Part shown: in pieces, positions 3 through 28,322 of the stretch
Layout of the letters: each line of letters opens with the position of its first letter
Numbering within the stretch: position 1 is the stretch's first letter
Assembly: GCA_034670305.1 (NCBI GenBank)
Contig: JAXMNT010000073.1
Coordinates: 1 to 28,322 of the forward strand
From: Deltaproteobacteria bacterium
Lineage (GTDB): Bacteria; Myxococcota_A; Polyangia; Polyangiales; Houyiibacteriaceae
DNA: 28,322 nt
Direction: 5' to 3'
Translations under genes and position numbers: made by a program
The notes under the pieces: model-generated
Told to the model about the DNA's origin: nothing
Database searches by the model: none
The model's input: only the letters and a program-made list of their open reading frames with translations

Positions 3-164
3 ATCCGGATGCGCATCGAGACGATCTTCGGATGGCTCAAGAGCGTCGGGGGACTCAGGCGCACGCGGTATCGAGGCAGACGCAAGACACAGTTCGCCGC
101 CTACCTGGCCGGCGCCGCATACAACCTTCTACGCGTCGCGCGGCTGCGGAGCTGCGCCGCGTAG
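3..164 (+). CDS. IS5/IS1182-type DDE transposase, C-terminal fragment (5' part outside window)
   Basis: Manual translation IRMRIETIFGWLKSVGGLRRTRYRGRRKTQFAAYLAGAAYNLLRVARL...* matches the R-x-x-IE-x-x-FGW-x-K ... R-x-RG ... AAYNL C-terminal pattern of these transposases. TAG at 162-164. Not in the ORF track. Confidence 0.85.
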   Translation: MRMRIETIFGWLKSVGGLRRTRYRGRRKTQFAAYLAGAAYNLLRVARLRSCAA

Positions 165-285
165 CACCGACCGATGCCCGGCGGCTTCGTCCACTGGGCA
201 TCGCGCTCCGATTCGCGCCTCGCCGTCGCGAAACACACGGCGTCCACGACGCGGGCAAGGGCACGGGCAAGGGCAACGGCAAGGG

Positions 286-311
286 AGCAGGTCGCTTTTC
301 AGCGACCTGCT
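286..311. terminator. Perfect 11-bp hairpin AGCAGGTCGCT-TTTC-AGCGACCTGCT overlapping the IS end; possible terminator between convergent genes
   Basis: Inverted repeat read directly. There is no U-tract, so terminator function is uncertain. Confidence 0.35.
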
Positions 312-316
312 AGCAG

Positions 317-383
317 TCGGGGTTCGGCGTCGGCGGTCGGCTTCGGCTTCGGCGTCGGCATCGGGGTCGGCAAGAGGGTCGGC
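317..383 (+). repeat. Degenerate (TCGGCN)n hexamer tract
   Basis: tcggggttcggcgtcggcggtcggcttcggcttcggcgtcggcatcggggtcggc, lying between the IS end and the acyl-CoA dehydrogenase stop. Confidence 0.85.
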
Positions 384-1660: not shown

Positions 1661-2155
1661 CTAGCGGCTGAACTTCTTCCAGCTCTCGGGGAGTGGCTGG
1701 CCCAGCAGTCGTTCGGCGCCGTGTTCGTCCAGCACCACGAACTTGAAGGTGCCGGTGAAACACACGTCTTCGTTCTGCATCAGCTTCACCTCCACGCCGA
1801 CGATGCGGCCGCGGTCGTCGGCGATGCGTCCTTCGCCGATCACCTCGGTTCCGATGCGCACCGCCTGGCGGATCGCGCATTCGACCCGGCCGGTGAATCC
1901 GAACTTTCGTTTCATGCCGATGAGCGTCCACGAGGCGAGCTCGTCACCGAGCGTCATCACGAGGCCGCCGTGCATGATCCCCGGCGGCCCCTGGTAGCGC
2001 TCGCCGGGCGTGAACCGCGTGCGCACCACGTCGCCGTCGCGTTCGAACTGGAGCTGGAACCCGATGGGATGATCCGGGCCGCAACCGAAGCACGGCTGCC
2101 CTTCGCCCCAGAGGCTTCCGTCGAACCGCTCTACGTCTTGTTTCGTCTCGGTCAC
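1661..2155 (-). CDS. PaaI/hotdog-fold thioesterase
   Basis: CFGCGPDHPIG and YQGPPGIMHGGLVMTLGDE motifs. The GTG start overlaps the upstream TGA (GTGA 2152-2155); the real CDS is the C-terminal third of track ORF 1661..3145. Confidence 0.88.
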   Translation of the reverse strand: MTETKQDVERFDGSLWGEGQPCFGCGPDHPIGFQLQFERDGDVVRTRFTPGERYQGPPGIMHGGLVMTLGDELASWTLIGMKRKFGFTGRVECAIRQAVRIGTEVIGEGRIADDRGRIVGVEVKLMQNEDVCFTGTFKFVVLDEHGAERLLGQPLPESWKKFSR

Positions 2156-3213
2156 GCGTCGATCTCCACGAGTTGGCACGCGATGCGCGCGAGGTGTCCG
2201 ACCGCGGCGCCGAACATGGACGCGTTCGCGTTCGAGGCGTTGCCCTGAAGGCTGCGCTTGAAGACGCCCTGCGCGATCGCCGCGAGCCGAAACAGACTGA
2301 ACGCTTTGTAGTAGGGCCAGTCGCCTTCGGGCGCGATGCCGCCGTGTGCGACGTAGCGCGCGATGAACTCGGCTTCGGTGGGAATGCCGGTCGCCTCGAA
2401 GTCGATGCCGAGCAGCCCGCCCACGTTCGGCAGCGCCACGTCGTAGAGCATGCAGGTGTACGCGAGATCGGCGAGCGGGTGGCCAAGGGTGCTCAGCTCC
2501 CAGTCGATGACGGCCAGGCAGCGCGGCTCGGTCGGGTGGAAGATCAGGTTGTCGAGCCGGAAGTCGCCGTGCGCGATCGTGGTGCGATCGTCCTTGGGCA
2601 AGTGGGCTGGCAAGTACGCGATGAGCGCGTCCATGTACGCCGCGCTGCCTTCCGCGTTCTCGTCCGCGCGCGACGCATCGTACTGCTTGGTCCAGCGCGC
2701 GACCTGTCGCTCGACGTAGCCACCCTTGCGGCCAAAGCCTTCCAGCCCGACCGCGTCCGGATCGACCGCGTGCAACGCCGCGAGGACGCGGGCGAGTTCT
2801 TCGTAGATCGCGGTTCGTTCCTCTGCGGCCAGGTCTGGCAACTGCACGTTCCAGAAGATGCGACCGGCCAGATGCTCCATCACGAAGAACGGCGTGCCGA
2901 TGACATCCGCGTCTTCGCAGAGCGCGAGCATCTTCGCAGTCGGCACGGCCGTGGGTGCAAGCGCGCTCATGATCTGGAACTCGCGTTCCACCATGTGCGC
3001 CTTGTTGAGCAACACCCCCGGCGGCTTCTTGCGCAGCACCGTCGCGCGCGTGCCGTCGTGGATCCAGAACGTCGGGTTCGACTGCCCGCCCTTGAACTGA
3101 CGCACCGTCAGGCCATCGTGTGCACCGATCGCGCCGGACCACCATCGCCCCAGCGCCTCGACGTCGAAGCGGTGGTTCTCGCGCACCTCCCGGGTGCTCT
3201 CAGGAAACTCCAT
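2152..3213 (-). CDS. APH-family phosphotransferase (ACAD10/11 N-terminal kinase-like)
   Basis: FKGGQSNPTF, VLRKKPPG, HGDFRLDNLIF, IDWELSTLGHPLADLAY; start taken at MEFPES (3213). Confidence 0.93.
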   Translation of the reverse strand: MEFPESTREVRENHRFDVEALGRWWSGAIGAHDGLTVRQFKGGQSNPTFWIHDGTRATVLRKKPPGVLLNKAHMVEREFQIMSALAPTAVPTAKMLALCEDADVIGTPFFVMEHLAGRIFWNVQLPDLAAEERTAIYEELARVLAALHAVDPDAVGLEGFGRKGGYVERQVARWTKQYDASRADENAEGSAAYMDALIAYLPAHLPKDDRTTIAHGDFRLDNLIFHPTEPRCLAVIDWELSTLGHPLADLAYTCMLYDVALPNVGGLLGIDFEATGIPTEAEFIARYVAHGGIAPEGDWPYYKAFSLFRLAAIAQGVFKRSLQGNASNANASMFGAAVGHLARIACQLVEIDA

Positions 3214-3255: not shown

Positions 3256-3346
3256 GCGCCCGGCGCCCGGCGCCCGGGCGCCCCTTGCCCTTGCCCTTGC
3301 CCTTGCCCCTGCCCTTGGTGGCTTGATCACCGAAGCCGATCCCGAA
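3256..3346 (-). repeat. Composite intergenic element copy 1: short TCGGC tract, TCGGCTTCGGTGATCAAGCCACC core, (GGGCAR)5, then a 7-mer x3
   Basis: Plus strand shows (GCGCCCG)3 at 3256-3276, cccc(ttgccc)4ctgccc at 3281-3314 and ggtggcttgatcaccgaagccga at 3317-3339. Confidence 0.85.
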
Positions 3347-3389
3347 CGCGGATCCGACAGCCACGCGCGCGGAGCGAGCCCTTGCCCGA

Positions 3390-3686
3390 TCAGGAAGCGC
3401 TGAAGTTCCAGGCTTTGCGGACTTCGACGCGCGGGATGAGGTAGTCGTCGACGAGCGCACGGTGGGTTGGGTCGCCGTTGTAGACGTGCACTGCGGCCAA
3501 GTCGGCGAACCGGACGACGAGCGAAAGATCCCACGACCCGAGCGTCGCTTCGTCCGCCGGCACCCCCACCCGGACATCCACCACCATCGGCAACGACGCC
3601 AGCACTTCGTGCGCATGCGTCGCGATCGTCTCTCGCTCCGCCACGAACTCGGCCTTGAGTTTAAAGAGCACGATCCGGTCGATCAT
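3390..3686 (-). CDS. Dabb family (stress-responsive A/B barrel) protein
   Basis: [11 protein letters not shown] ... [28 protein letters not shown]; 98 aa; C-terminal part of track ORF 3390..4292. Confidence 0.88.
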
Positions 3687-3750
3687 GCCGTTCGTCCTAG
3701 CACAGAGATCGGCGTCGGGGAGTTCGACGCTGCCCGGGTGGCTGTTGCGA

Positions 3751-4033
3751 TCGGACTCGGCTTCGGTTTCGGCGTCGGGATCGGCTTCGGCTTCGGCGTC
3801 GGCGTCGGCTTCGGCGTCGGCTTCGGCTTCGGCTTCGGGTTCGGCTTCGGCGTCGGATTCGGGGATCGGCTTCGGCGTCGGTTTCGGGGATCGGCTTCGG
3901 GGATCGGCTTCGGTTCGGCGTTGGCTTCGTGATCGAACCACCAAGGGCAGGGGCAGGGGCAGGGGCAAGGGCAAGGGGACACGGGGCCAGAGGGCCAGGG
4001 GGCAAGGGACACCGGGGGGCACTGGGCAAGGGC
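3751..4033 (+). repeat. Composite intergenic element copy 2: ~170-bp (TCGGCN)n tract, variant core GGCTTCGTGATCGAACCACC, (GGGCAR)n and G-rich tail
   Basis: Hexamer tract 3751-3920, core 3923-3942, GGGCAG/GGGCAA units 3945-3978, degenerate G-runs up to the stop at 4034. Confidence 0.88.
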
Positions 4034-4489
4034 CTACGGCGGAAGTTGTTCGGTCCACCCCATCTCCATGCAGCCCCACCAACCGATCAGAATCGCTTCG
4101 GCGGCGTCGTGTTTCAGGGAGGTCGGTCTCGGTGCGTCGCTCGCTTCGATGATGCGGCGCGCAACTTCTCCGGCGGCGGCTTTCGCGTCCACGCCTGAGC
4201 GCTGCTCGCGATCGAGCAACAAGCGGCGCCGCCAGGTGTGCGCTTGGATCACGAAGGTGCGCGCGCCTCTTCGCTCGGCGACTTTGGTCCACGCCCGCGC
4301 GAGCAACGCGTCGCCTTCGAGCACGACGGCGGCGAGCTCGCCGATCTCGGACAGCTCGCCGTACGCGCCGCGTTTGAGCCGCGCGAATGAGCCGTAGTTC
4401 TGCGAGCGGTAGCGCACGAGTGCACCCGCGTCGTCGTAGACGGCGAGGCCGGTCTTGAGACCGAGGTCGACGGCGAGCAGGTGGGGCAT
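4034..4489 (-). CDS. Uncharacterised RNase H-like / RuvC-fold protein
   Basis: LLAVDLGLKTGLAV (first Asp), VVLEG (Glu), W-R-R after the central strand and HDAAEAILIG near the C-terminus parallel the RuvC D/E/DxxD catalytic layout; 151 aa. Confidence 0.65.
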   Translation of the reverse strand: MPHLLAVDLGLKTGLAVYDDAGALVRYRSQNYGSFARLKRGAYGELSEIGELAAVVLEGDALLARAWTKVAERRGARTFVIQAHTWRRRLLLDREQRSGVDAKAAAGEVARRIIEASDAPRPTSLKHDAAEAILIGWWGCMEMGWTEQLPP

Positions 4490-4544
4490 CGGTTGGAGTG
4501 TGGGTCGGGCGACGGGTTTCACAACACCTGAACGCGTGGCGGTT

Positions 4545-4756
4545 CCGATGCCGATGCCGATGCCGATGCCGATGCCGATGCCGACGCCGATCCCGACCCC
4601 GAAGCCGAAGCCGAAGCCGAAGCCGATGCCGATGCCGATGCCGATGCCGATGCCGATGCCGATGCCGATGCCGATGCCGATCCCGATCCCGATGCCGATG
4701 CCGGACGCCGATGCCGAAGCCGAAGCCGAAGCCGATGCCGATCCCGGACGCCGATC
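4545..4756 (-). repeat. ~210-bp (CCGATG/CCGAAG)n hexamer tract, i.e. the TCGGCN repeat on the minus strand
   Basis: Near-perfect tandem ccgatg with ccgaag blocks; abuts the stop of the SRPBCC gene. Confidence 0.95.
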
Positions 4757-5233
4757 CTATTCGGCGAGTCGGGTGAGGAACGCTGCGTGGTTCTTGCGGA
4801 CGGCGGCGCGGAACATCTGGCTCGTGGCGCGCAGCACGGGCCAGTAGATTGGGCTTCGGCCGTCGAAGACGAACGTGCGGGTGAGCTTGGTGGCGCTGCC
4901 GACGGCGGTGAACCGCGCCTCCTCTTCGATGCCGCGCACGAGGTGCCGGAAGGCCGACGAGATCTGGTCGATCTTCAGAACGTAGACCTCACCCCGATCC
5001 GCGCGCACGACATGTTCTCGGTGGGTGCTCCCGTCCGAGTTGTGGACCCGGCCGTACGCGCCGAGGCTGGCCGCTTCGCCGGACTCCCAGACCACTTCGC
5101 GGATCCCGGGGATGGGGCCCCAGCCGGTGAAGAGGCGGTAGGCCTCCGGGGTGATGAAGAAGTCGTAGGCGGCTTCCGGTTCGAGCGGCAGGACGACGTG
5201 TTCGCGGACCGTGATCTTCACCGGGCTGAGCAT
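4757..5233 (-). CDS. SRPBCC / polyketide cyclase-like (START fold) protein
   Basis: PEAAYDFF..., FTGWGPIPGIREV, HNSDGSTHREHV, TKLTRTFVF and a C-terminal helix; size typical. Start could be at 5251. Confidence 0.8.
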   Translation of the reverse strand: MLSPVKITVREHVVLPLEPEAAYDFFITPEAYRLFTGWGPIPGIREVVWESGEAASLGAYGRVHNSDGSTHREHVVRADRGEVYVLKIDQISSAFRHLVRGIEEEARFTAVGSATKLTRTFVFDGRSPIYWPVLRATSQMFRAAVRKNHAAFLTRLAE

Positions 5234-5332
5234 ACCCGAGCCGCGCTCCACCGCGCTCCGCCCAACTCCGCCTAGACGCGCTCTGCGTGGCCTTGTGGCT
5301 CGCGGCCCTGCCAGACACGACTTCCAGCGACG

Positions 5333-5911
5333 CTACTCCGCCAAGCACGCCTCCGGGGGCATGGTCGCGTCGGAGCCCACGCAGACTTCGCGCTCGGCGA
5401 ACGCGAGGCGTGTGCCGGCCGAGTCGGTGATCTCCACTTGGGCGAGTGCGGGGCCCGGCACGAGGTCGCCGTCCGGAAAGATCACTCGAAGGCCCCGGCG
5501 GATGCACACGTCGAACTCGTCCTCGAACAAGGCGCGCGCCCGGCGCGTCGTCTCGCCGAGCACTTCGGTGCCGGACATCAACCGGACCAACACGATGTCT
5601 TCGGGGCCGACCTGGTTCACGTACGCATCGAGCAGTTCGACGTGCACGGTCGACGCGCCCTGCCCCATCGCCGAAGTGCCCACCTCCGCGAAGTCGCCCT
5701 CGAAGAAGAGTACGGGTTCGAGGCCGACGTGGCAGCGGTCGGGAATGGGTGCGGGCGCGGGCTCGAGTGGGCCGCAGATCACGCCGAGCGAACAGACGAG
5801 GCCGACGCTGAGCAGCAGCCTCTGCGGGAGGGCCGGAACGTGGCCTTTGCGCGGGACGCCTGTGCGAGGGAGGCCGGTGGGCGGGAGGCCGGTGGGCGGG
5901 AGGCGGCTCAT
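5333..5911 (-). CDS. Hypothetical exported/membrane-anchored protein
   Basis: ATG preceded by GAGAGG; N-terminal LPPTG repeats, a hydrophobic stretch LLLSVGLVCSLGVIC, several Cys; GC3-rich codons. Confidence 0.6.
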   Translation of the reverse strand: MSRLPPTGLPPTGLPRTGVPRKGHVPALPQRLLLSVGLVCSLGVICGPLEPAPAPIPDRCHVGLEPVLFFEGDFAEVGTSAMGQGASTVHVELLDAYVNQVGPEDIVLVRLMSGTEVLGETTRRARALFEDEFDVCIRRGLRVIFPDGDLVPGPALAQVEITDSAGTRLAFAEREVCVGSDATMPPEACLAE

Positions 5912-5929
5912 CCCGTCAACCTCTCAGCA

Positions 5930-6580
5930 TCAGCCGACTTCGTCGAGCCAGGCTTCGCAGTGCCCAATCGCGTCCGACGCACCGTCGAAGCTTCGGGTCT
6001 CGTCGAGGCCGGCGGGGCGGAAGTCGTCGAGAAGGGGCTCGAAGGAATCGCTGCTCGATTCGAAAGAGTCGCTCGGTGGTCCGAACGAGTCGCTCGCGGG
6101 CGTACCGGTCTCTGGAACAAAGACCGCGGGGACCCGCACGGTCGCGTCGGGCGACGGAGCAGACCGATCAGACGCAAGGTGTACTGGCTGGCGACCGGTG
6201 TCGTCCTCGGTCCACTTCGGGGTCACGACCGCGACCACCTCGCCGTCCGGTCCGAGTGCTGGCAAGTCCATGCGGGTCGGTCCACACGTGAACGTCAGGA
6301 TGTGGCGGGCTTCGTCCGGTTCGGCAGGGCGAATGACCCGCAGACGGCCGGTCGTGAGTTCGATGGCCGGAAAGCAGAGGGCGGAGCCGACGCGGCGACC
6401 GAGCGGCTGCCGGCGAAGGGTGCGGCCCCGGTCGCGGCTGAGCATGTACGGCACCTGTCGGCCGATGGCTGGATGGTCTCCGACCCAGGTCTTCGTGCGG
6501 CGATCCCGGACGGCCACACAGAGCGATCCCCCGAGAAAGTACTCGGTGTTGCGGGTCGCGTAGACGGTCAACTGGCTCAT
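5930..6580 (-). CDS. Hypothetical protein with TRNTEY...CVAVRDRR N-terminal domain and acidic tail
   Basis: Start at MSQLTVYATRNTEY with AGGA RBS; the motif is recalled from uncharacterised myxobacterial proteins; SDSF repeats in the tail. Confidence 0.65.
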   Translation of the reverse strand: MSQLTVYATRNTEYFLGGSLCVAVRDRRTKTWVGDHPAIGRQVPYMLSRDRGRTLRRQPLGRRVGSALCFPAIELTTGRLRVIRPAEPDEARHILTFTCGPTRMDLPALGPDGEVVAVVTPKWTEDDTGRQPVHLASDRSAPSPDATVRVPAVFVPETGTPASDSFGPPSDSFESSSDSFEPLLDDFRPAGLDETRSFDGASDAIGHCEAWLDEVG

Positions 6581-6777
6581 CTGGGTCGTCCTACGAGCAA
6601 GGACCGTTCCGCCTTCCCCCAGACGTCGATCTTTCGAGAACCTGGTGCAAGGAAGGTCACAGGTGGGGCGCAGAGACCCCACGGTGGCACACCTTGCGTG
6701 GGGTCTGTGGGCACGAGGGGCGACTGGAGTCGCCAGGCGGCCGTTCCGCGTCAAGACGCGTCGTATATCCTCGGTGC

Positions 6778-7854
6778 ATGTTGCGACTTCTCTGGCGGGC
6801 CGCGCCCTTGCTCTGGGCGCGCTGGAAACGGAAGGCAGCCGTGGTGGTTGGGCTGCTCGTGCTCGGGGTCTGGGCATGGCCGACCGAGCGCGGTTCCGAA
6901 CCCGATTCCGCGGCCGAGGCCCGGGAGCACGCAACCGCGGTCGGAACCCGGGTGGAAGAGCTCGGGGTGCTGCCGCGGGTCTCCCACTCGTGGGTGGGTG
7001 GACTCGCGGCCGCCAACGAAGCCGACGGCCGGGCCGAAGTGTATGTCCACTGGGAGGCCACGAAAGAGTTCGACGACGAGGACTACTTCATGGACGCAGG
7101 GCTCACGCGGTTCGACGGCAACGGCGCCACCCGACTCGAGCGCTACACCCGAGCCGGCGCAGGCCTCGCCATCGCGGGGGACCGGCTGTTTGGATCCTCG
7201 CCGACAGGTGTGTTCGAGATGGCGCGGCCGGATGGGCCGCGGGAGATCGTAGAGCCGACCGCGGGGCTGCTCGGCACCTGGCGGGGTGGCTTGGTGTTGG
7301 TCCGAGACCGGGCCGTGCTGGTCCGTTCGCCAGACGGGGTGGTTCGCGAGGTCGCGCAGTTGGCCATATCAAGGTCCGCCTGCGTCTGCGGAGACGCGCT
7401 CTTCGGGTTCGCCAGTTTCGCCCCGACCACGCTCGCGCGCGTAGACCTGCGGTCGGGCGCACAGCGCGAAGTCGCCCAGCTTCCACCCGGTATCCAGTAC
7501 GGAGCAGGCATGGTGTGCGCACGCCCAGGCCTCATCTACGCATTCGCCCTCGAAGGCGGTGCCGCCCACCAAAGCCACCTCATCCGGATCGAAGCAGGCC
7601 GCGCCCACGTGGTGTCGTCGTCGAGAGAGCGACCGCGACCCATCGCCGCCAACCCGAACTGGGTGTTCGTGCAGCGTGGCTTCACCGGCAACGGGATCAT
7701 CGAACGCATCGACCACGACGGCCGAGGGGCGCCGTTCGTCACCGGGCAGGGCCACGTCCTCCGCGCGGTGGCGACGGACCGACACCTGGTGTGGGTGGGC
7801 GGCGGACGGGCCACAGAACGAACCCAGTACGTCCGGCGCGCCGCGCTGCAGTAG
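6778..7854 (+). CDS. Hypothetical membrane-anchored protein, possibly a beta-propeller
   Basis: N-terminal TM (AAVVVGLLVLGVWAW) followed by repeated short beta-strand units (GLAIAGDRLF, PIAANPNWVF, AVATDRHLVW). Confidence 0.65.
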   Translation: MLRLLWRAAPLLWARWKRKAAVVVGLLVLGVWAWPTERGSEPDSAAEAREHATAVGTRVEELGVLPRVSHSWVGGLAAANEADGRAEVYVHWEATKEFDDEDYFMDAGLTRFDGNGATRLERYTRAGAGLAIAGDRLFGSSPTGVFEMARPDGPREIVEPTAGLLGTWRGGLVLVRDRAVLVRSPDGVVREVAQLAISRSACVCGDALFGFASFAPTTLARVDLRSGAQREVAQLPPGIQYGAGMVCARPGLIYAFALEGGAAHQSHLIRIEAGRAHVVSSSRERPRPIAANPNWVFVQRGFTGNGIIERIDHDGRGAPFVTGQGHVLRAVATDRHLVWVGGGRATERTQYVRRAALQ

Positions 7855-7867
7855 GCACGAGGGCGCG

Positions 7868-7997
7868 TCGGCTCGGTGTCGGCGTCGGCGTCCGTGTCGG
7901 CGTCCGTGTCGGCTTCGGTGTCGGCTTCGGTGATCAAGCCACCGAGGGCAAGGGCAAGGGCAAGGGCAAGGGCAAGGGCAAGGGCAAGGGCAAGGGG
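7868..7997 (+). repeat. Composite intergenic element copy 3: (TCGGCN/TCCGTG)n tract, TCGGCTTCGGTGATCAAGCCACC core, (GGGCAA)8
   Basis: Core at 7921-7943 and eight perfect GGGCAA units at 7946-7993, between convergent stop codons. Confidence 0.92.
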
Positions 7998-8026
7998 CTA
8001 CGCCCTATCCGGCTTCGCGTCTTTTC

Positions 8027-8635
8027 TCACCGATACGGATGCGCGCTGAACGCGCCGAGGGCGCGGCGGACGAGTTGGGTCGGGACGTGGCGGCGGACCC
8101 GATCGGCGAGTTCGAAGTGGGCGCCGGCGTAGGCTTCGTCGTAGCGCTCGCTGGCGGCGAGGACCTCGCGAAAGCGGCCCCAGCGCTGCGCTTCTTCGAC
8201 GTCGGCCCGCGCCTCGCGCACGGCGGGTTGGGCGTCGACGAGTTCGAAGCACAAGGACTCCGCCGCCAACACGAAAGCGTTCACGTCCCCGCCCTGCTCA
8301 AAGCGCATCAACGCCCGCTGCGTGGCGACGAGTACCGCGGAGGATGCACCGGCGGCTCCCTCGGCCGGGACCACGCCCCACTCACGGGGGTCGACCGGCT
8401 CGCTGTCGCGGAACGGCACGTCTTCGAAGAGTGCGCGGGTGGCCGCGTGCAACACGCCGGGTTCGATGTCGACGCGCGCCGCCAACTCCAAGCACCACGA
8501 ACCTCGTGGACAGGCCATCCACGCACCGGCGGCGTCGTCTCCGAACGGCTCCAAGTAGCGGGTGAGTTCACGGGTGGCTCCCCGGCGCCCCAGCTCCTCG
8601 GCAAGGCGTCCGCCGCGCGCGCTCCATCCCAACAC
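8027..8635 (-). CDS. Hypothetical alpha-helical protein (AWxACPRGxW motif)
   Basis: C-terminal part of track ORF 8027..9466 has protein-like composition (YLEPFGDDAAGAWMACPRGSWCLELAAR). Start uncertain; GTG 8635 chosen. Confidence 0.6.
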   Translation of the reverse strand: MLGWSARGGRLAEELGRRGATRELTRYLEPFGDDAAGAWMACPRGSWCLELAARVDIEPGVLHAATRALFEDVPFRDSEPVDPREWGVVPAEGAAGASSAVLVATQRALMRFEQGGDVNAFVLAAESLCFELVDAQPAVREARADVEEAQRWGRFREVLAASERYDEAYAGAHFELADRVRRHVPTQLVRRALGAFSAHPYR

Positions 8636-8758
8636 CGCGCGAAGACTGAAGAAGAAGCGCACTGCGAACACTCTACCCGATGATGCCGACGACCTCCCCT
8701 CTTCGAGGGTGGCGATGCCCATGCCGATGTCCGCGCGATTGGGGTACCGTCCGGGTCC

Positions 8759-9520
8759 ATGGGCCACAGCATTCAGCTTCAGACCAAGCATGCGGACAAC
8801 GGGGCGGCCATCGACGAGCTCGCGACGGTCGTGGATGCCGAGGGCCTGTGGCTGACCCACGACGAGTCGGTCCCGGCGGACGAATGGGTGGCGTTCGAGG
8901 TCTCGCTCGGCGATGGCAGTGTGTTCCTCGAAGGCATGGGGCGGTGCGAGAAGAGCCAGGCCACCGCGACGGGGTTCTCGGTGCGGTTGACGACGCTCCA
9001 GTTCGATCCCTCGAACGAACTCATCTTCGAGCGGATCCTCCTCGCCAAAGAGGACCAGGACGAGGGCGGCCGGTTGACGGGAGAAGTGGACGTGGGGGCG
9101 ATGGCGCGCGCAGACGATTCGAAGTCGTCGCCACCGGTCTCCGGCGTGCCGGTGGACCGACCGAGCCACCTCAGCCCACTCGCCACGCCCGGCCCGCCGG
9201 TCAAACCTCCCCCGCCTTTGCCGAAACCCAAACCCTCGTCGCCGCCGCCGCCGCTCGCCGCTGGGCTCCCGCGACCTTCTCGGCCGCCGCCCGCCCAACC
9301 CCGGACACCCTTTGTGGATCCACCCTCTCGGACCGGCGTGGGTGAAGACACCCAGTCCGACATGCTGGTCCCGCAGAACCTCCCGGCCGATGTACTCAAG
9401 GACCTCAAACGGGTGACGGCTCGGCTGGTGGCCGAAGGCCGGGTGCGTGACTTGGCGGAGGCCCACGTGTTGGTGCTACGGGTAGGGCTCAGTGCCCTCG
9501 ATCCGTACCTCGACGACTAG
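8759..9520 (+). CDS. Protein with N-terminal PilZ-like (myxobacterial TIGR02266-like) domain, Pro-rich linker and small C-terminal helical domain
   Basis: GLWL...WVAFEVSLGDGSVFLEGMGRC...GFSVRL..LQFDP..ELIFERIL resembles that domain pattern; family assignment tentative. Confidence 0.6.
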   Translation: MGHSIQLQTKHADNGAAIDELATVVDAEGLWLTHDESVPADEWVAFEVSLGDGSVFLEGMGRCEKSQATATGFSVRLTTLQFDPSNELIFERILLAKEDQDEGGRLTGEVDVGAMARADDSKSSPPVSGVPVDRPSHLSPLATPGPPVKPPPPLPKPKPSSPPPPLAAGLPRPSRPPPAQPRTPFVDPPSRTGVGEDTQSDMLVPQNLPADVLKDLKRVTARLVAEGRVRDLAEAHVLVLRVGLSALDPYLDD

Positions 9521-24765: not shown

Positions 24766-25194
24766 ATGGCGTGGTTCGTTCTTTTCATCGCGGGTGCACT
24801 CGAGGTCGCGTGGGCCTTGGGGCTCAAGTACACGGAAGGCTTCACCAAGCCCCTGCCGAGTCTGCTGACTGGTGGGGCAATCGTGGCGAGCATGCTGCTG
24901 CTCGCACACGCCAGCCGGACGCTTCCCATCGGCACCGCCTACGCGGTGTGGGTCGGGATCGGCGTGGTGGGCACCACGGTCGGGGGCATGTGGCTGTTCG
25001 ACGAAGCGATGCCGCCGCTTCGGGTGTTCTTGGTCGCGTTGCTCGTGGTGTGCATCGTCGGGCTGAAGGTCACCGCCGCACCTCTCACGTCCGCACCGGC
25101 TGAGGGCGCACCGGCTGAGGGCGCACCGGCTGAGGCGGGACCAGTTGGTGACGTTGCGGCTTCGGCGGAGACACCCGCTCGCGACGGTCAGTAG
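24766..25194 (+). CDS. sugE: SMR family guanidinium exporter Gdx (SugE) with low-complexity C-terminal extension
   Basis: MAWFVLFIAGALEVAWALGLKYTEGFT, PIGTAYAVWVGIG, 4 TMs; upstream guanidine riboswitch. Confidence 0.93.
   Translation: MAWFVLFIAGALEVAWALGLKYTEGFTKPLPSLLTGGAIVASMLLLAHASRTLPIGTAYAVWVGIGVVGTTVGGMWLFDEAMPPLRVFLVALLVVCIVGLKVTAAPLTSAPAEGAPAEGAPAEAGPVGDVAASAETPARDGQ
25093..25136 (+). repeat. 15-bp tandem repeat (GCACCGGCTGAGGGC) x ~3
   Basis: Read directly; encodes APAEG repeats in the Gdx tail. Confidence 0.9.
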
Positions 25195-27904: not shown

Positions 27905-28196
27905 GCGGGTTCGGGTTCGGCTCCGGATTCGGGATCCTGGGATCGGCGTCGGCTTCGGTTTCGGCTTCGCCGTCGGCTTCGGCTTCGGCGTCGGGATCGG
28001 CGTCGGCTTCGGTTTCGGCTTCGGCGTCGGCTTCGGCTTCGGCTTCGGCGTCGGCCTCGGCCTCGGCTTCGGTTTCGGTTTCGGTTTCGGCTTCGGCTTT
28101 GGCCTCGGCTTCGGCTTCGGCTTTGGCCTCGGCTTTGGCTTCGGTTTCGGTTTCGGTTTCGGCTACCGCTTCCGCTTCCGCTTCCGCTTCCGCTTC
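27905..28196 (+). repeat. ~290-bp (TCGGCN)n hexamer tract grading into (TTCCGC)n
   Basis: Read directly; ends exactly at the GTAA of the IS66 end. Confidence 0.95.
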
Positions 28197-28322
28197 GTAA
28201 GTCCTCTTGGCGCCCCGTGTTGACGGGCTGAGGGTCAGCCGAGCGGGAGCTTGATTTCGCCGAGGCGGGCGGCTTGGACGGCTTCGGTGAGGTAGGCGGC
28301 GGGGTCGAGGTCGTTCAGTTTT
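28197..28322 (-). mobile_element. IS66-family element, right end
   Basis: Terminus GTAAGTCCTCTTGGCGCCCCGTG (IS66 ends begin GTAA) lies 38 bp from the transposase stop. Confidence 0.8.
28235..28321 (-). CDS. IS66 transposase (TnpC) C-terminal fragment
   Basis: Manual translation KLNDLDPAAYLTEAVQAARLGEIKLPLG* matches the KLN-x-x-DP-x-x-YL ... LP C-terminus of IS66 transposases. Confidence 0.8.
   Translation of the reverse strand, partial: KLNDLDPAAYLTEAVQAARLGEIKLPLG

Follow-up and report, generated by a model that had tools for sequence, protein, structure and literature searches.

Paired TCGGNN and GGGCAN hexamer repeats between the genes of a myxobacterial genome: a probable REP/BIME-like intergenic mosaic

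Introduction

The repetitive extragenic palindromic (REP) sequences, bacterial interspersed mosaic elements (BIMEs) and REP doublets forming hairpins (REPINs) of enterobacteria and pseudomonads are short, hairpin-forming extragenic modules that occur in hundreds of copies at the 3' ends of genes; they combine into mosaics whose linkers fall into defined types, are enriched where the neighbouring genes converge or run in one direction, and are sometimes targeted by insertion sequence (IS) elements. Long simple-sequence repeats (SSRs) of the variable-number tandem repeat type have reportedly been surveyed in prokaryotes by Mrazek and co-workers. The mini-me elements of Drosophila consist of 2 microsatellites around a conserved core, and minisatellites of the mycobacterial interspersed repetitive unit (MIRU) type have units of 40–100 bp and carry small open reading frames (ORFs) in phase with flanking genes. 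In this report we examine 3 elements in a 28,322-nt stretch of DNA (contig JAXMNT010000073.1 of the Deltaproteobacteria assembly GCA_034670305.1, referred to throughout as the window), in each of which a tract of TCGGNN hexamers (C tract) is joined through a short non-repetitive linker to a block of GGGCAN hexamers (G block). We put at about 0.55 the probability that these elements are local instances of a genome-wide, REP/BIME-like mosaic of intergenic modules and not members of a family defined by a core. They depart in an unusual way from the kinds of intergenic repeat already known in bacteria and share no core, and any function is putative.

The likeness to the REP/BIME and REPIN systems lies in the placement of extragenic modules at gene ends, in the hairpins, in the linker mosaics and in copy numbers of hundreds; the elements described here differ in that they have no palindrome consensus, consist of tandem hexamers and not of inverted REP pairs, and have no association with transposases of the Y1 type or of the REP-associated tyrosine transposase (RAYT) type. 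As with long SSRs, the TCGGNN arm is arranged head to tail with block-wise variants, reaches lengths of ~350 nt and is mainly intergenic. Unlike long SSRs, the repeats are extremely dense, making up 1.7% of the genome, their periods are almost exclusively multiples of 3 nt (3n), and they show polar linkage to a repeat of constrained length. The architecture of 2 microsatellites with a non-repetitive spacer is that of the mini-me elements, although here the spacer is not conserved and we saw no evidence of retroposition. The MIRU definition fits poorly, as the unit is 6 nt, the arms share no phase, and there is only weak unevenness of phase after stop codons.

A closer parallel to the G block has been published. 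The G-quadruplex (G4)-forming GGGAATC repeats of Xanthomonas and Nostoc are 89–93% intergenic, and of their two neighbouring ORFs one is on average 28 nt away and the other 160 nt (Rehm et al. 2015, PMC4692102). As far as the accessible passages of that paper describe them, these repeats and the G blocks are both G4-capable, G-rich simple repeats present in about one hundred to a few hundred copies per genome, ~90% intergenic, placed asymmetrically between ORFs on either strand, and enriched in certain lineages only. By the same passages, the 2 systems differ in that the unit here is 6 nt (GGGCAN) and not a heptamer, with the number of units held near 4–5; in that the G block often carries a hairpin overlapping a stop codon and also forms an IS terminus; and in that the G block is joined, with fixed polarity, to a second microsatellite that is not G4-forming, a partner of which those passages make no mention. 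In the full-text literature searched (subscription journals lay outside the scope of the search), no account turned up of TCGGNN microsatellites coupled in a polar manner to GGGCAN blocks of fixed length.

Results

Anatomy of the three elements

By reading and aligning the sequence, we confirmed the central observation of a first-pass annotation of the window, namely that 3 copies exist in which a C tract, a core and a G tract follow one another with fixed polarity. In each copy a TCGGNN-type tract lies to the 5' side, and GGGCAR units to the 3' side, of a non-repetitive stretch, all on the same strand. Tandem Repeats Finder (TRF) placed the tandem arms at 3282-3317, 3757-3929, 3945-4001, 7865-7930 and 7945-7996. 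The description of copy 1 required correction: its tripartite order holds, but the supposedly variable C tract comprises only ~3–4 degenerate units. The features are as follows.

3331..3355, minus strand: copy 1, degenerate short TCGGNN arm of ~3–4 units (sequence, alignment, TRF row 3325-3355)
3317..3330, minus strand: copy 1, 14-nt linker (the "core") GTGATCAAGCCACC, 0 mismatches
3281..3316, minus strand: copy 1, G block, GGGCAR x5 + GGG, predicted to be G4-capable (TRF 3282-3317, G4 prediction)
3757..3929, plus strand: copy 2, TCGGNN microsatellite of 28.5 units (TRF, sequence)
3929..3942, plus strand: copy 2, diverged linker GTGATCGAACCACC, 2 mismatches relative to the copy 1 linker (alignment, mismatch scan)
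3945..4030, plus strand: copy 2, G block, GGGCAG/GGGCAA x5, then a degenerate G-rich stretch (TRF rows to 4018, sequence, G4 prediction)
7865..7930, plus strand: copy 3, degenerate TCGGNN/12-nt arm (TRF, sequence)
7930..7943, plus strand: copy 3, 14-nt linker identical to that of copy 1, 0 mismatches
7945..7997, plus strand: copy 3, G block, GGGCAA x8 + GGG (TRF 100% matches, sequence, G4 prediction)

Relative to the flanking genes that have Pfam support (APH at 2152-3213(-), Dabb at 3390-3686(-) and SRPBCC at 4757-5251(-)), all 3 copies are intergenic, as had been proposed; the remaining flanking ORFs received no support in the Pfam search of the window. The G block of copy 1 faces the start of the APH gene and is adjoined by a perfect hairpin, GGCGCCCGG/CCGGGCGCC, detected by a hairpin scan of the minus strand. 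The C tract of copy 2 is antisense to the flanking minus-strand genes, one G is missing just upstream of its linker, and its G-rich part stops 3 nt short of the CTA (TAG) codon that terminates ORF 4034-4522(-). Copy 3 fills the gap between a TAG stop at 7852-7854 and a minus-strand ORF of 479 aa (8027-9466) that ends at 8027-8029; its C arm begins 11 nt past the TAG, and its G block lies 30 nt from the TGA stop (8027-8029). No Rfam family matched the window at the gathering threshold.

The linker

The first-pass annotation had regarded the non-repetitive stretch as the conserved 23-nt core of a dispersed element. One part of that claim stands, in that 14 nt of it are identical in copies 1 and 3. 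By our arithmetic a given 14-mer should occur ~0.06 times by chance in 15.9 Mb of two-strand sequence, and so the presence of 2 exact copies in the same context is not due to chance. The other part, a core family distributed over the genome, does not stand. We scanned the whole assembly (7.93 Mb in 105 contigs, 68% GC; in the labels used below the genome is G000 and the window is contig C73) for the 14-mer exactly and with 1 mismatch. There were 5 matches with ≤1 mismatch in the genome, and only the 2 sites in the window were both exact and in a repeat context; with 3 mismatches allowed, the window itself gave 4 matches against 2.3 expected, which is not above chance. The core is thus private to a 4.7-kb neighbourhood, a restriction that the annotation had itself named as telling against its proposal. 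Nor is one core found at most junctions, since the linkers at 214 junctions vary. Among junctions with an upstream tract, the linkers that lead from a C tract to a G block have a median length of 13 nt, are A/C-rich (...AACCAA, ...CACCGA, ...AACCAC) and are not conserved. The suggestion that the core pairs internally also found no support: the folds predicted for copies 1, 2 and 3 (-11.2, -10.6 and -17.4 kcal/mol) are no more stable than those of shuffled sequences, for which the mean energies were -12.5, -13.9 and -15.4 kcal/mol.

Small families of copied linkers do exist elsewhere, because in 25 of the 142 linkers of at least 9 nt the last 9-mer is common to another locus, where the null expectation is 0.2 loci; GCCTGCACTCAA, for example, is found at 5 loci and TCGTGCCTTGA at 4. 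The window core is one more small linker family of this kind: 2 of its members are identical, the third has diverged, and all lie within 4.7 kb. It may be a private linker that was recently copied, either by local duplication or by ectopic gene conversion in which the repeats served as homology arms. A dispersed element family defined by a conserved 23-nt core was rejected because the core is private and the linkers are variable.

Polarity of the junctions

The claim that the tracts are not independent microsatellites was borne out across the genome, where C tract and G block are linked with strong polarity. Among 335 G blocks that are not part of an IS end (non-IS blocks; see below), a TCGGNN tract lies ≤90 nt upstream on the same strand in 181 cases and on the opposite strand in 33, while 121 have none; tracts downstream of the G block are rare (~12 of 214 close pairs). 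An independent search with a degenerate pattern for a C tract followed by a G block produced 330 overlapping matches, where the reversed control produced 1. The corresponding search for a G block followed by a C tract returned 46 matches against 28 for its control, and nearly all such junctions pass through one conserved linker, GGGAACCGCRCATCCTCTCCTTCGGATTCGG, with a 13-nt heart present in 52 copies; the TTCGGA end of this linker leads straight into a TTCGGA/TCGGCT tract. A conserved module, CATCCTCTCCTTCGGATTCGG, containing the 13-nt heart, often follows a G block via GGGAACCGCR (for example at C5:65100-65300 and C44:45384-45460).

The registers of the 2 arms are unrelated, the distance between them being flat modulo 6 and distributed 37/52/51 modulo 3. 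In 65 composites we detected no gradient of C-tract purity towards the G block (0.838, 0.851, 0.845; p = 0.23).

Genome-wide census of the TCGGNN microsatellite

A periodicity scan of the assembly found 1613 period-6 tracts, which occupy 136,347 nt or 1.7% of the genome and belong predominantly to the classes AAGCCG (TCGGCT and its relatives) and AAGGGC/ACGGGC (GGGCAA/GGGCAC). By reference to 5903 genes (87.7% coding) called with our own crude, codon-bias-based program, 85% of tract bases are intergenic, and the tracts constitute 11.8% of intergenic DNA.

TCGGNN tracts of at least 10 in-register units number 596; the median is 19 units and the longest tract has 55. Together they hold 12,093 units, of which 5343 are TCGGCT. 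The mix of variants differs from tract to tract, for two units taken from one tract match with probability 0.356 and units of different tracts with probability 0.255. Identity also follows a super-period of 12 nt, being 0.439 at lag 2 compared with 0.346 for adjacent units. The tracts are head-to-tail tandem arrays in the manner of prokaryotic microsatellites and long SSRs. Of the earlier proposal that both arms expand, by slippage or by templated repeat addition, the C arm retains its place, since it behaves as a slippage microsatellite, whereas the G arm is constrained in length; we saw no sign of templated addition. The periods observed were 6 (1483 tracts), 12 (253), 15 (69), 3 (46) and 9 (17); the other periods between 4 and 14 (4, 5, 7, 8, 10, 11, 13 and 14) together accounted for 24 tracts.

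C tracts prefer gaps between convergent genes. Of 654 classifiable cases, 264 (40%) lie in convergent gaps compared with 887 of all 4787 background gaps (19%), and 83 (13%) lie in divergent gaps compared with 979 of 4787 (20%). We also observed that the TCGGNN strand tends to be the locally C-rich strand (negative GC skew), with 310 cases for and 172 to the contrary. The corresponding figures for the G strand are 96 and 67, and gene orientation has no such bias (1647 against 1741). This orientation is real and modest; as skew is only a proxy for the direction of replication, we report it as an observation and not as support for any mechanism.

Loss of mismatch repair was considered and rejected: mutS (884 bits) and mutL (416 bits) are both present, neither with internal stops. 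In 4 public DNA runs from one study, which may be the source of the assembly, contigs stop at each tract and none bridges one; the stops of the Logan contigs in the window are at 3275-3321, 3791-3828, 3936-3985, 4534-4755 and 7937-8004.

The G block and its placement at gene ends

The genome contains 466 GGGCAN blocks of at least 3 units. Blocks of 4 units (178) and of 5 units (168) predominate, and those of at least 6 units number only 50; 222 of the 335 non-IS blocks end in an extra GGG. The G arm had been taken to be freely variable, and these counts contradict that description: the block is held near 4–5 units plus GGG. The variable base of successive units forms recurrent patterns among the non-IS blocks, AGAGA at 36 loci, CCCCC at 21 and AGAAA at 17. 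As (GGGCAN)4-5GGG, the block has six G3 runs separated by 3-nt loops and fits the motif of at least 4 G3 runs with loops of ≤7 nt. ViennaRNA with its G4 option placed a quadruplex in all 3 window copies, with a gain of 8–18 kcal/mol, and the G block is accordingly predicted to be capable of forming a G-quadruplex in DNA or RNA.

G blocks are found at the edge of the intergenic gap, with a gene adjoining their 3' side in the G-strand orientation. The nearest gene on that side presents its stop codon to the block in 199 cases, at a median gap of 25 nt, and its start in 133, at a median of 81 nt. A perfect hairpin with a stem of at least 7 bp follows 72 of the 335 non-IS blocks (6 in shuffles, 5 on the upstream side), and in 34 of these 72 the stem starts directly after the terminal GGG. 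Among the 61 blocks that have both a hairpin and a called neighbour, 46 are faced by the stop codon of that neighbour, and in 41 of these 46 the hairpin ends between -16 and +4 nt from the codon. The hairpin sequences differ among blocks, with no single consensus other than the IS-end type, AGCAGGTCGC...GCGACCTGCT. They are not canonical intrinsic terminators, because they have no U-tract and are followed by CCC(YTGCCC)n and not by a run of T.

Viewed from the neighbouring gene, NTGCCC units lie ≤60 nt after the stop codon of 149 genes, with a further 43 at IS ends, and GGGCAN units after 24; the contrast of 149 to 24 arises in part because the polarity of the composite puts the C tract between gene and block in the other direction. 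The stop codon is TAG in 90 of the 149 genes followed by NTGCCC, compared with 1604 of 5460 genome-wide. The common order in the direction of the neighbour is stop codon, hairpin, CCC(YTGCCC)4-5, linker and (NGCCGA)n. Copies 2 and 3 of the window follow this order without a clear hairpin, and copy 1 faces a gene start. In the aggregate, the placement of these modules is extragenic and mostly at the 3' ends of genes, as is typical of REP/BIME elements.

Relationship to an insertion sequence

The window begins with an element that ties the G block to mobile DNA.

3..313, plus strand: right end of an IS ("element A"; Pfam PF01609, E 1.9e-8, and consensus of copies)

The contig starts inside a DDE_Tnp_1 transposase gene, of which the C-terminal 53 aa lie at 3-161 with the stop at 162-164. 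Beyond the gene are a subterminal region, a G block at 253-285 and a terminal hairpin at 285-313 that ends in CTAG; the window copy of the repeated end was taken as 150-313. By a strict pattern, 121 G blocks in the genome, about a quarter of the total, are IS ends of this type. Their flanks are identical, with CGACGC to the 5' side and CGGCAAGG plus the hairpin GAGCAGGTCGCTTTTCAGCGACCTGCTAG to the 3' side, and the blocks lie ≤33 nt from the CTAG tip. An alignment of 56 copies showed high conservation from ~45 nt upstream of the block to the tip. A block of this type with its hairpin is, then, the terminus of a high-copy IS with a DDE transposase, and in 39 of 43 gene-adjacent IS ends the TAG/CTAG of the hairpin is the stop codon of the neighbouring gene. 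We identified no inverted-repeat partner end for this IS.

About 70 of the IS-end copies lie ~57 nt from the end of a contig, and this IS is for that reason a main cause of breaks in the assembly. Among 48 copies with 1600 nt of assembled upstream sequence, the IS interior that is common to other copies amounts to only 35–512 nt in 43 and is absent in 5; these copies are therefore truncated remnants.

The ~121 G blocks with hairpins at a CTAG tip, together with the PF01609 transposase C-terminus, resemble the ends of IS4/IS5-type DDE insertion sequences, their solo ends, or derivatives of the miniature inverted-repeat transposable element (MITE) class. In the window, only the 3-313 element has an end of the IS4/IS5 type; the 3 tripartite copies do not have that flank, and most solitary blocks likewise differ in having no IS subterminal sequence. 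Some solitary blocks carry the IS-type hairpin and most do not. As the same block with a hairpin forms the IS terminus, many solitary G blocks may be remnants, IS-end-derived or REP-like, that were deposited at gene ends.

The association with Y1/RAYT-type transposases that might be expected of a REP-like element was not found. There are 11 Y1_Tnp matches in the genome, and of the 8 that could be placed in a called gene only 2 have a tract within 600 nt. The Y1_Tnp (IS200/RAYT-like) genes, which encode ~235–249 aa and include those at C1:180033-180584, C38:23610-24161 and C68:18512-19063, have conserved flanks of their own, among them a downstream hairpin GGTGCAGCAGCATGCTGCATTGGCA, and are unrelated to the hexamer tracts.

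Distribution in relatives

By its protein matches the organism belongs among the Myxococcota, close to metagenome-assembled genomes of Polyangiaceae. The 2 arms are distributed differently among related genomes. Matches to 5 units of TCGGCN number 4799 in the present genome, 351 in G012 (a genome of another genus, assembled as one contig) and ≤21 in each of the other 39 relatives, and any match at all occurs in 12 of the 41 genomes. Matches to 4 units of GGGCAN number 716 here, 481 in G004, 357 in G017 and 56–83 in 4 others; a 33-nt form of the G block is present, with a patchy distribution, in 36 of 201 genomes of the order. Blocks in G004 consist of 5 units plus GGG, some of them after stop codons and some followed by a hairpin. 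Twenty modules of G004 and G017 have at least 330 nt of flanking sequence, and of these the 3' flank is coding in 19 (10 on the stop side, 9 on the start side) and the 5' flank is non-coding in 15. In G012 both junction orders occur, with linkers particular to that genome. Because blocks are found in several related genera and the TCGGNN expansion is essentially confined to this genome, the G block is both older and more widespread than the expansion.

We noted in addition that the G blocks of G004 recur every 95–115 nt in higher-order tandem units (C10:56830-57270, C15:5180-5480, C15:26040-26262 and C44:36780-37100), and that some G blocks of this related genus lie directly upstream of a GGAGG-ATG gene start (for example locus L112). 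In the nearest genomes the APH protein is ≤76% identical and gene order is different. No tract was present in the 80 metagenome loci retained (634 kb in total; best identity 72%).

Other repeats in the window

The window contains 4 tracts beyond those first annotated, at 253-285 (the IS-end block), 324-371, 4545-4755 and 27943-28197. These and a GC-rich run next to copy 1 are as follows.

324..371, plus strand: TCGGCG tract just outside the IS end (TRF, sequence)
3256..3283, no strand assigned: GCGCCCG x3.9, a GC-rich palindromic run directly after the copy 1 G block (TRF; the perfect hairpin given above for copy 1)
4545..4755, minus strand: (CATCGG/TCGGCA)35 = (CCGATG)35, the same microsatellite family without a G block (TRF, sequence)
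27943..28197, plus strand: (TCGGCT)42, the same microsatellite family without a G block (TRF, sequence)

The 211-nt tract at 4545-4755 occupies the entire gap between SRPBCC 4757-5251(-) and ORF 4034-4522(-). The genes around it are co-directional on the minus strand and form a probable operon; if transcribed, the mRNA would carry (CAUCGG)n. There are also 15-nt tandem repeats at 25092-25135 and 5848-5904, CGCACCGGCTGAGGG x2.9 (perfect) and TGCGCGGGAGGCCGG x3.8, respectively.

Discussion

The first-pass annotation had proposed a dispersed REP-like element. The resemblance to REP-like intergenic mosaics is what survives of that proposal; the family defined by its core does not. In the mosaic that we favour, the modules deposited at gene boundaries, whether REP-like or descended from IS ends, would consist of a block and hairpin capable of adopting a G-quadruplex. 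In the flank of the module that points away from the gene, a TCGG-containing proto-repeat of the same strand would then have seeded a microsatellite. Slippage during replication, or unequal exchange, would have lengthened this (TCGGNN)n by 6 or 12 nt at a time in the non-coding DNA 5' of the G block. On the opposite flank of the G block, the conserved CATCCTCTCCTTCGGA module may represent a comparable case of seeding. Linkers would drift, and would occasionally be copied between loci.

Several of our observations weigh against this scheme. The near-exclusive 3n periods are not predicted by plain slippage in non-coding DNA, and the scheme offers no explanation for them. The polarity of same-strand over opposite-strand tracts (181 to 33) is only partly accounted for by seeding, which is itself conjectural. 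Given the absence of a purity gradient, growth is not visibly focused at the junction, and with MutS and MutL intact no repair defect explains the expansion. An IS origin applies to only about a quarter of the blocks, since the hairpins and flanks of most solitary blocks differ from the IS end. Finally, gene boundaries outside the window depend on a crude gene caller, which in the window ran the APH gene through copy 1, and the tract lengths are those of this assembly, as the contigs of the public runs break at the tracts and carry no information on length or polymorphism.

It is possible that arms, linker and hairpin transpose together as a single composite non-autonomous mobile element, similar to a MITE or REPIN or derived from an IS end, after which the arms slip and the linker diverges. 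We consider this unlikely. In its favour, polarity is fixed; linker families occur on different contigs (25 of 142 loci); contig C5 carries ~72-nt higher-order tandem units of CATCCTCTCC, (TTCGGA)n, CACCGA and (GGGCAR)5; the block and hairpin form the terminus of a DDE IS at no fewer than 121 ends; the coincidence of the hairpin TAG/CTAG with the neighbour's stop in 39 of 43 gene-adjacent IS ends resembles targeted insertion; and amplification is patchy and lineage-specific. Against it, we found neither a conserved core nor conserved outer ends, in position weights (which around non-IS blocks are weak) or in sorted flanks. Moreover, 121 of 335 blocks have no C tract, ~784 classified C tracts compare with only 214 junctions, and the 2 arms are uncoupled in abundance across genera (G004 has 481 G matches and 11 C matches). 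There is also no link to the 11 Y1_Tnp genes. A second possibility, which we hold to be somewhat more doubtful, is that selection keeps the G block and hairpin, perhaps together with the adjoining tract, at the ends of genes, where they would act as a terminator, an insulator or a 3'-UTR stabilizer. The C-rich (YUGCCC)5 tail that follows stop codon and hairpin in the direction of the neighbour could load Rho or bind a protein, and a G-quadruplex in the G-rich template could block RNA polymerase. Such a role would be consistent with the constrained length of 4–5 units plus GGG in 3 genera, with stop codons facing the block at a median of 25 nt (199 against 133 cases), with hairpins that differ in sequence yet pair perfectly and that in 34 of 72 cases start at the very point where the block finishes, with the enrichment of tracts in convergent gaps and their depletion in divergent ones, and, so far as its accessible passages go, with the published analogue of the GGGAATC G4 repeats of Xanthomonas and Nostoc (PMC4692102). 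It is harder to reconcile with the presence of a strong hairpin at only 72 of 335 blocks, with the modules of G004 and G017, where a gene start faces the block as often as a stop (9 against 10 of 20), with copy 1 of the window, which faces a gene start, and with the IS-end copies, in which the same sequence spreads as selfish DNA. Neither of these explanations excludes the mosaic; both are compatible with it.

Two other explanations appear to us much less credible. That the tracts or junctions are mis-joins of a short-read metagenome assembly is suggested by the 105 contigs and by the failure of any contig from the 4 runs to bridge a tract, but it is very improbable in view of the unique segments between tracts, which were recovered with 0 differences in 4 of 4 runs and end inside the expected repeat. 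One run contig, over 4756-7936, takes in the C arm of copy 3 and the start of the core; 1613 loci share a consistent grammar; and the same tracts and junctions are present in the one-contig genome G012. Translation of the tracts, at present or in the recent past, into low-complexity sequence (as extensions of C-termini, as small ORFs or by read-through of stop codons) would supply the 3n periods that slippage does not. In-gene tracts are read in the sense GCCGAN (Ala-Glu/Asp) in 89 cases against 20, the reverse complement of the CATCCTCTCC module, GAAGGAGAGGATG, resembles a strong Shine-Dalgarno site with an ATG, and copy 3, by our own reading, shares its frame with an alternative, short ORF of the minus strand whose stop is the CTA/TAG at 7998-8000. 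Against translation, Pfam-supported genes end before the tracts, the tracts lie on either strand relative to genes, the arms have no register link (37/52/51 modulo 3), and the phases counted beyond stop codons (62/92/60 and 30/48/55) show only slight unevenness. Of 36 ATGs after a motif of the GAAGGAGAGGATG type, 35 are unlinked to called genes, and their products are repeat-derived, of low complexity and in inconsistent frames. A coding origin is hardly tenable, and we rejected it on account of the missing arm register, the repeat-derived ORFs and the weak phase after stops.

More speculatively, and with rather low expectation on our part, the G block may be a lineage-wide, G4-forming gene-boundary element of Polyangiales-like myxobacteria that marks transcript ends and destabilizes replication on one side, driving polar growth of the 5' flank; such growth may take the form of hexamer microsatellites here and of ~100-nt higher-order repeats in genus g5. 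The one test we ran does not support polar instability driven by a G4, because the purity of the tracts does not rise towards the block. If true, the proposal would extend to bacteria the kind of minisatellite instability that is driven by G4s, and would account for the 12% share of hexamers in the intergenic DNA.

On the practical side, the repeats break short-read assemblies and would be informative strain markers; the strict 3n periodicity of repeats in non-coding DNA is an oddity that merits the attention of specialists. If our preferred reading of a REP/BIME-like mosaic holds, 2 simple repeats coexist in this organism under a grammar in which one is of fixed length at the ends of genes and mobile elements and the other runs free. 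The genome would then offer a system for asking whether bacterial G-quadruplex motifs act at the 3' ends of transcripts, would allow a test of whether such motifs bias replication slippage nearby, and would show how the termini of insertion sequences may be domesticated, or may decay, to REP-like modules.

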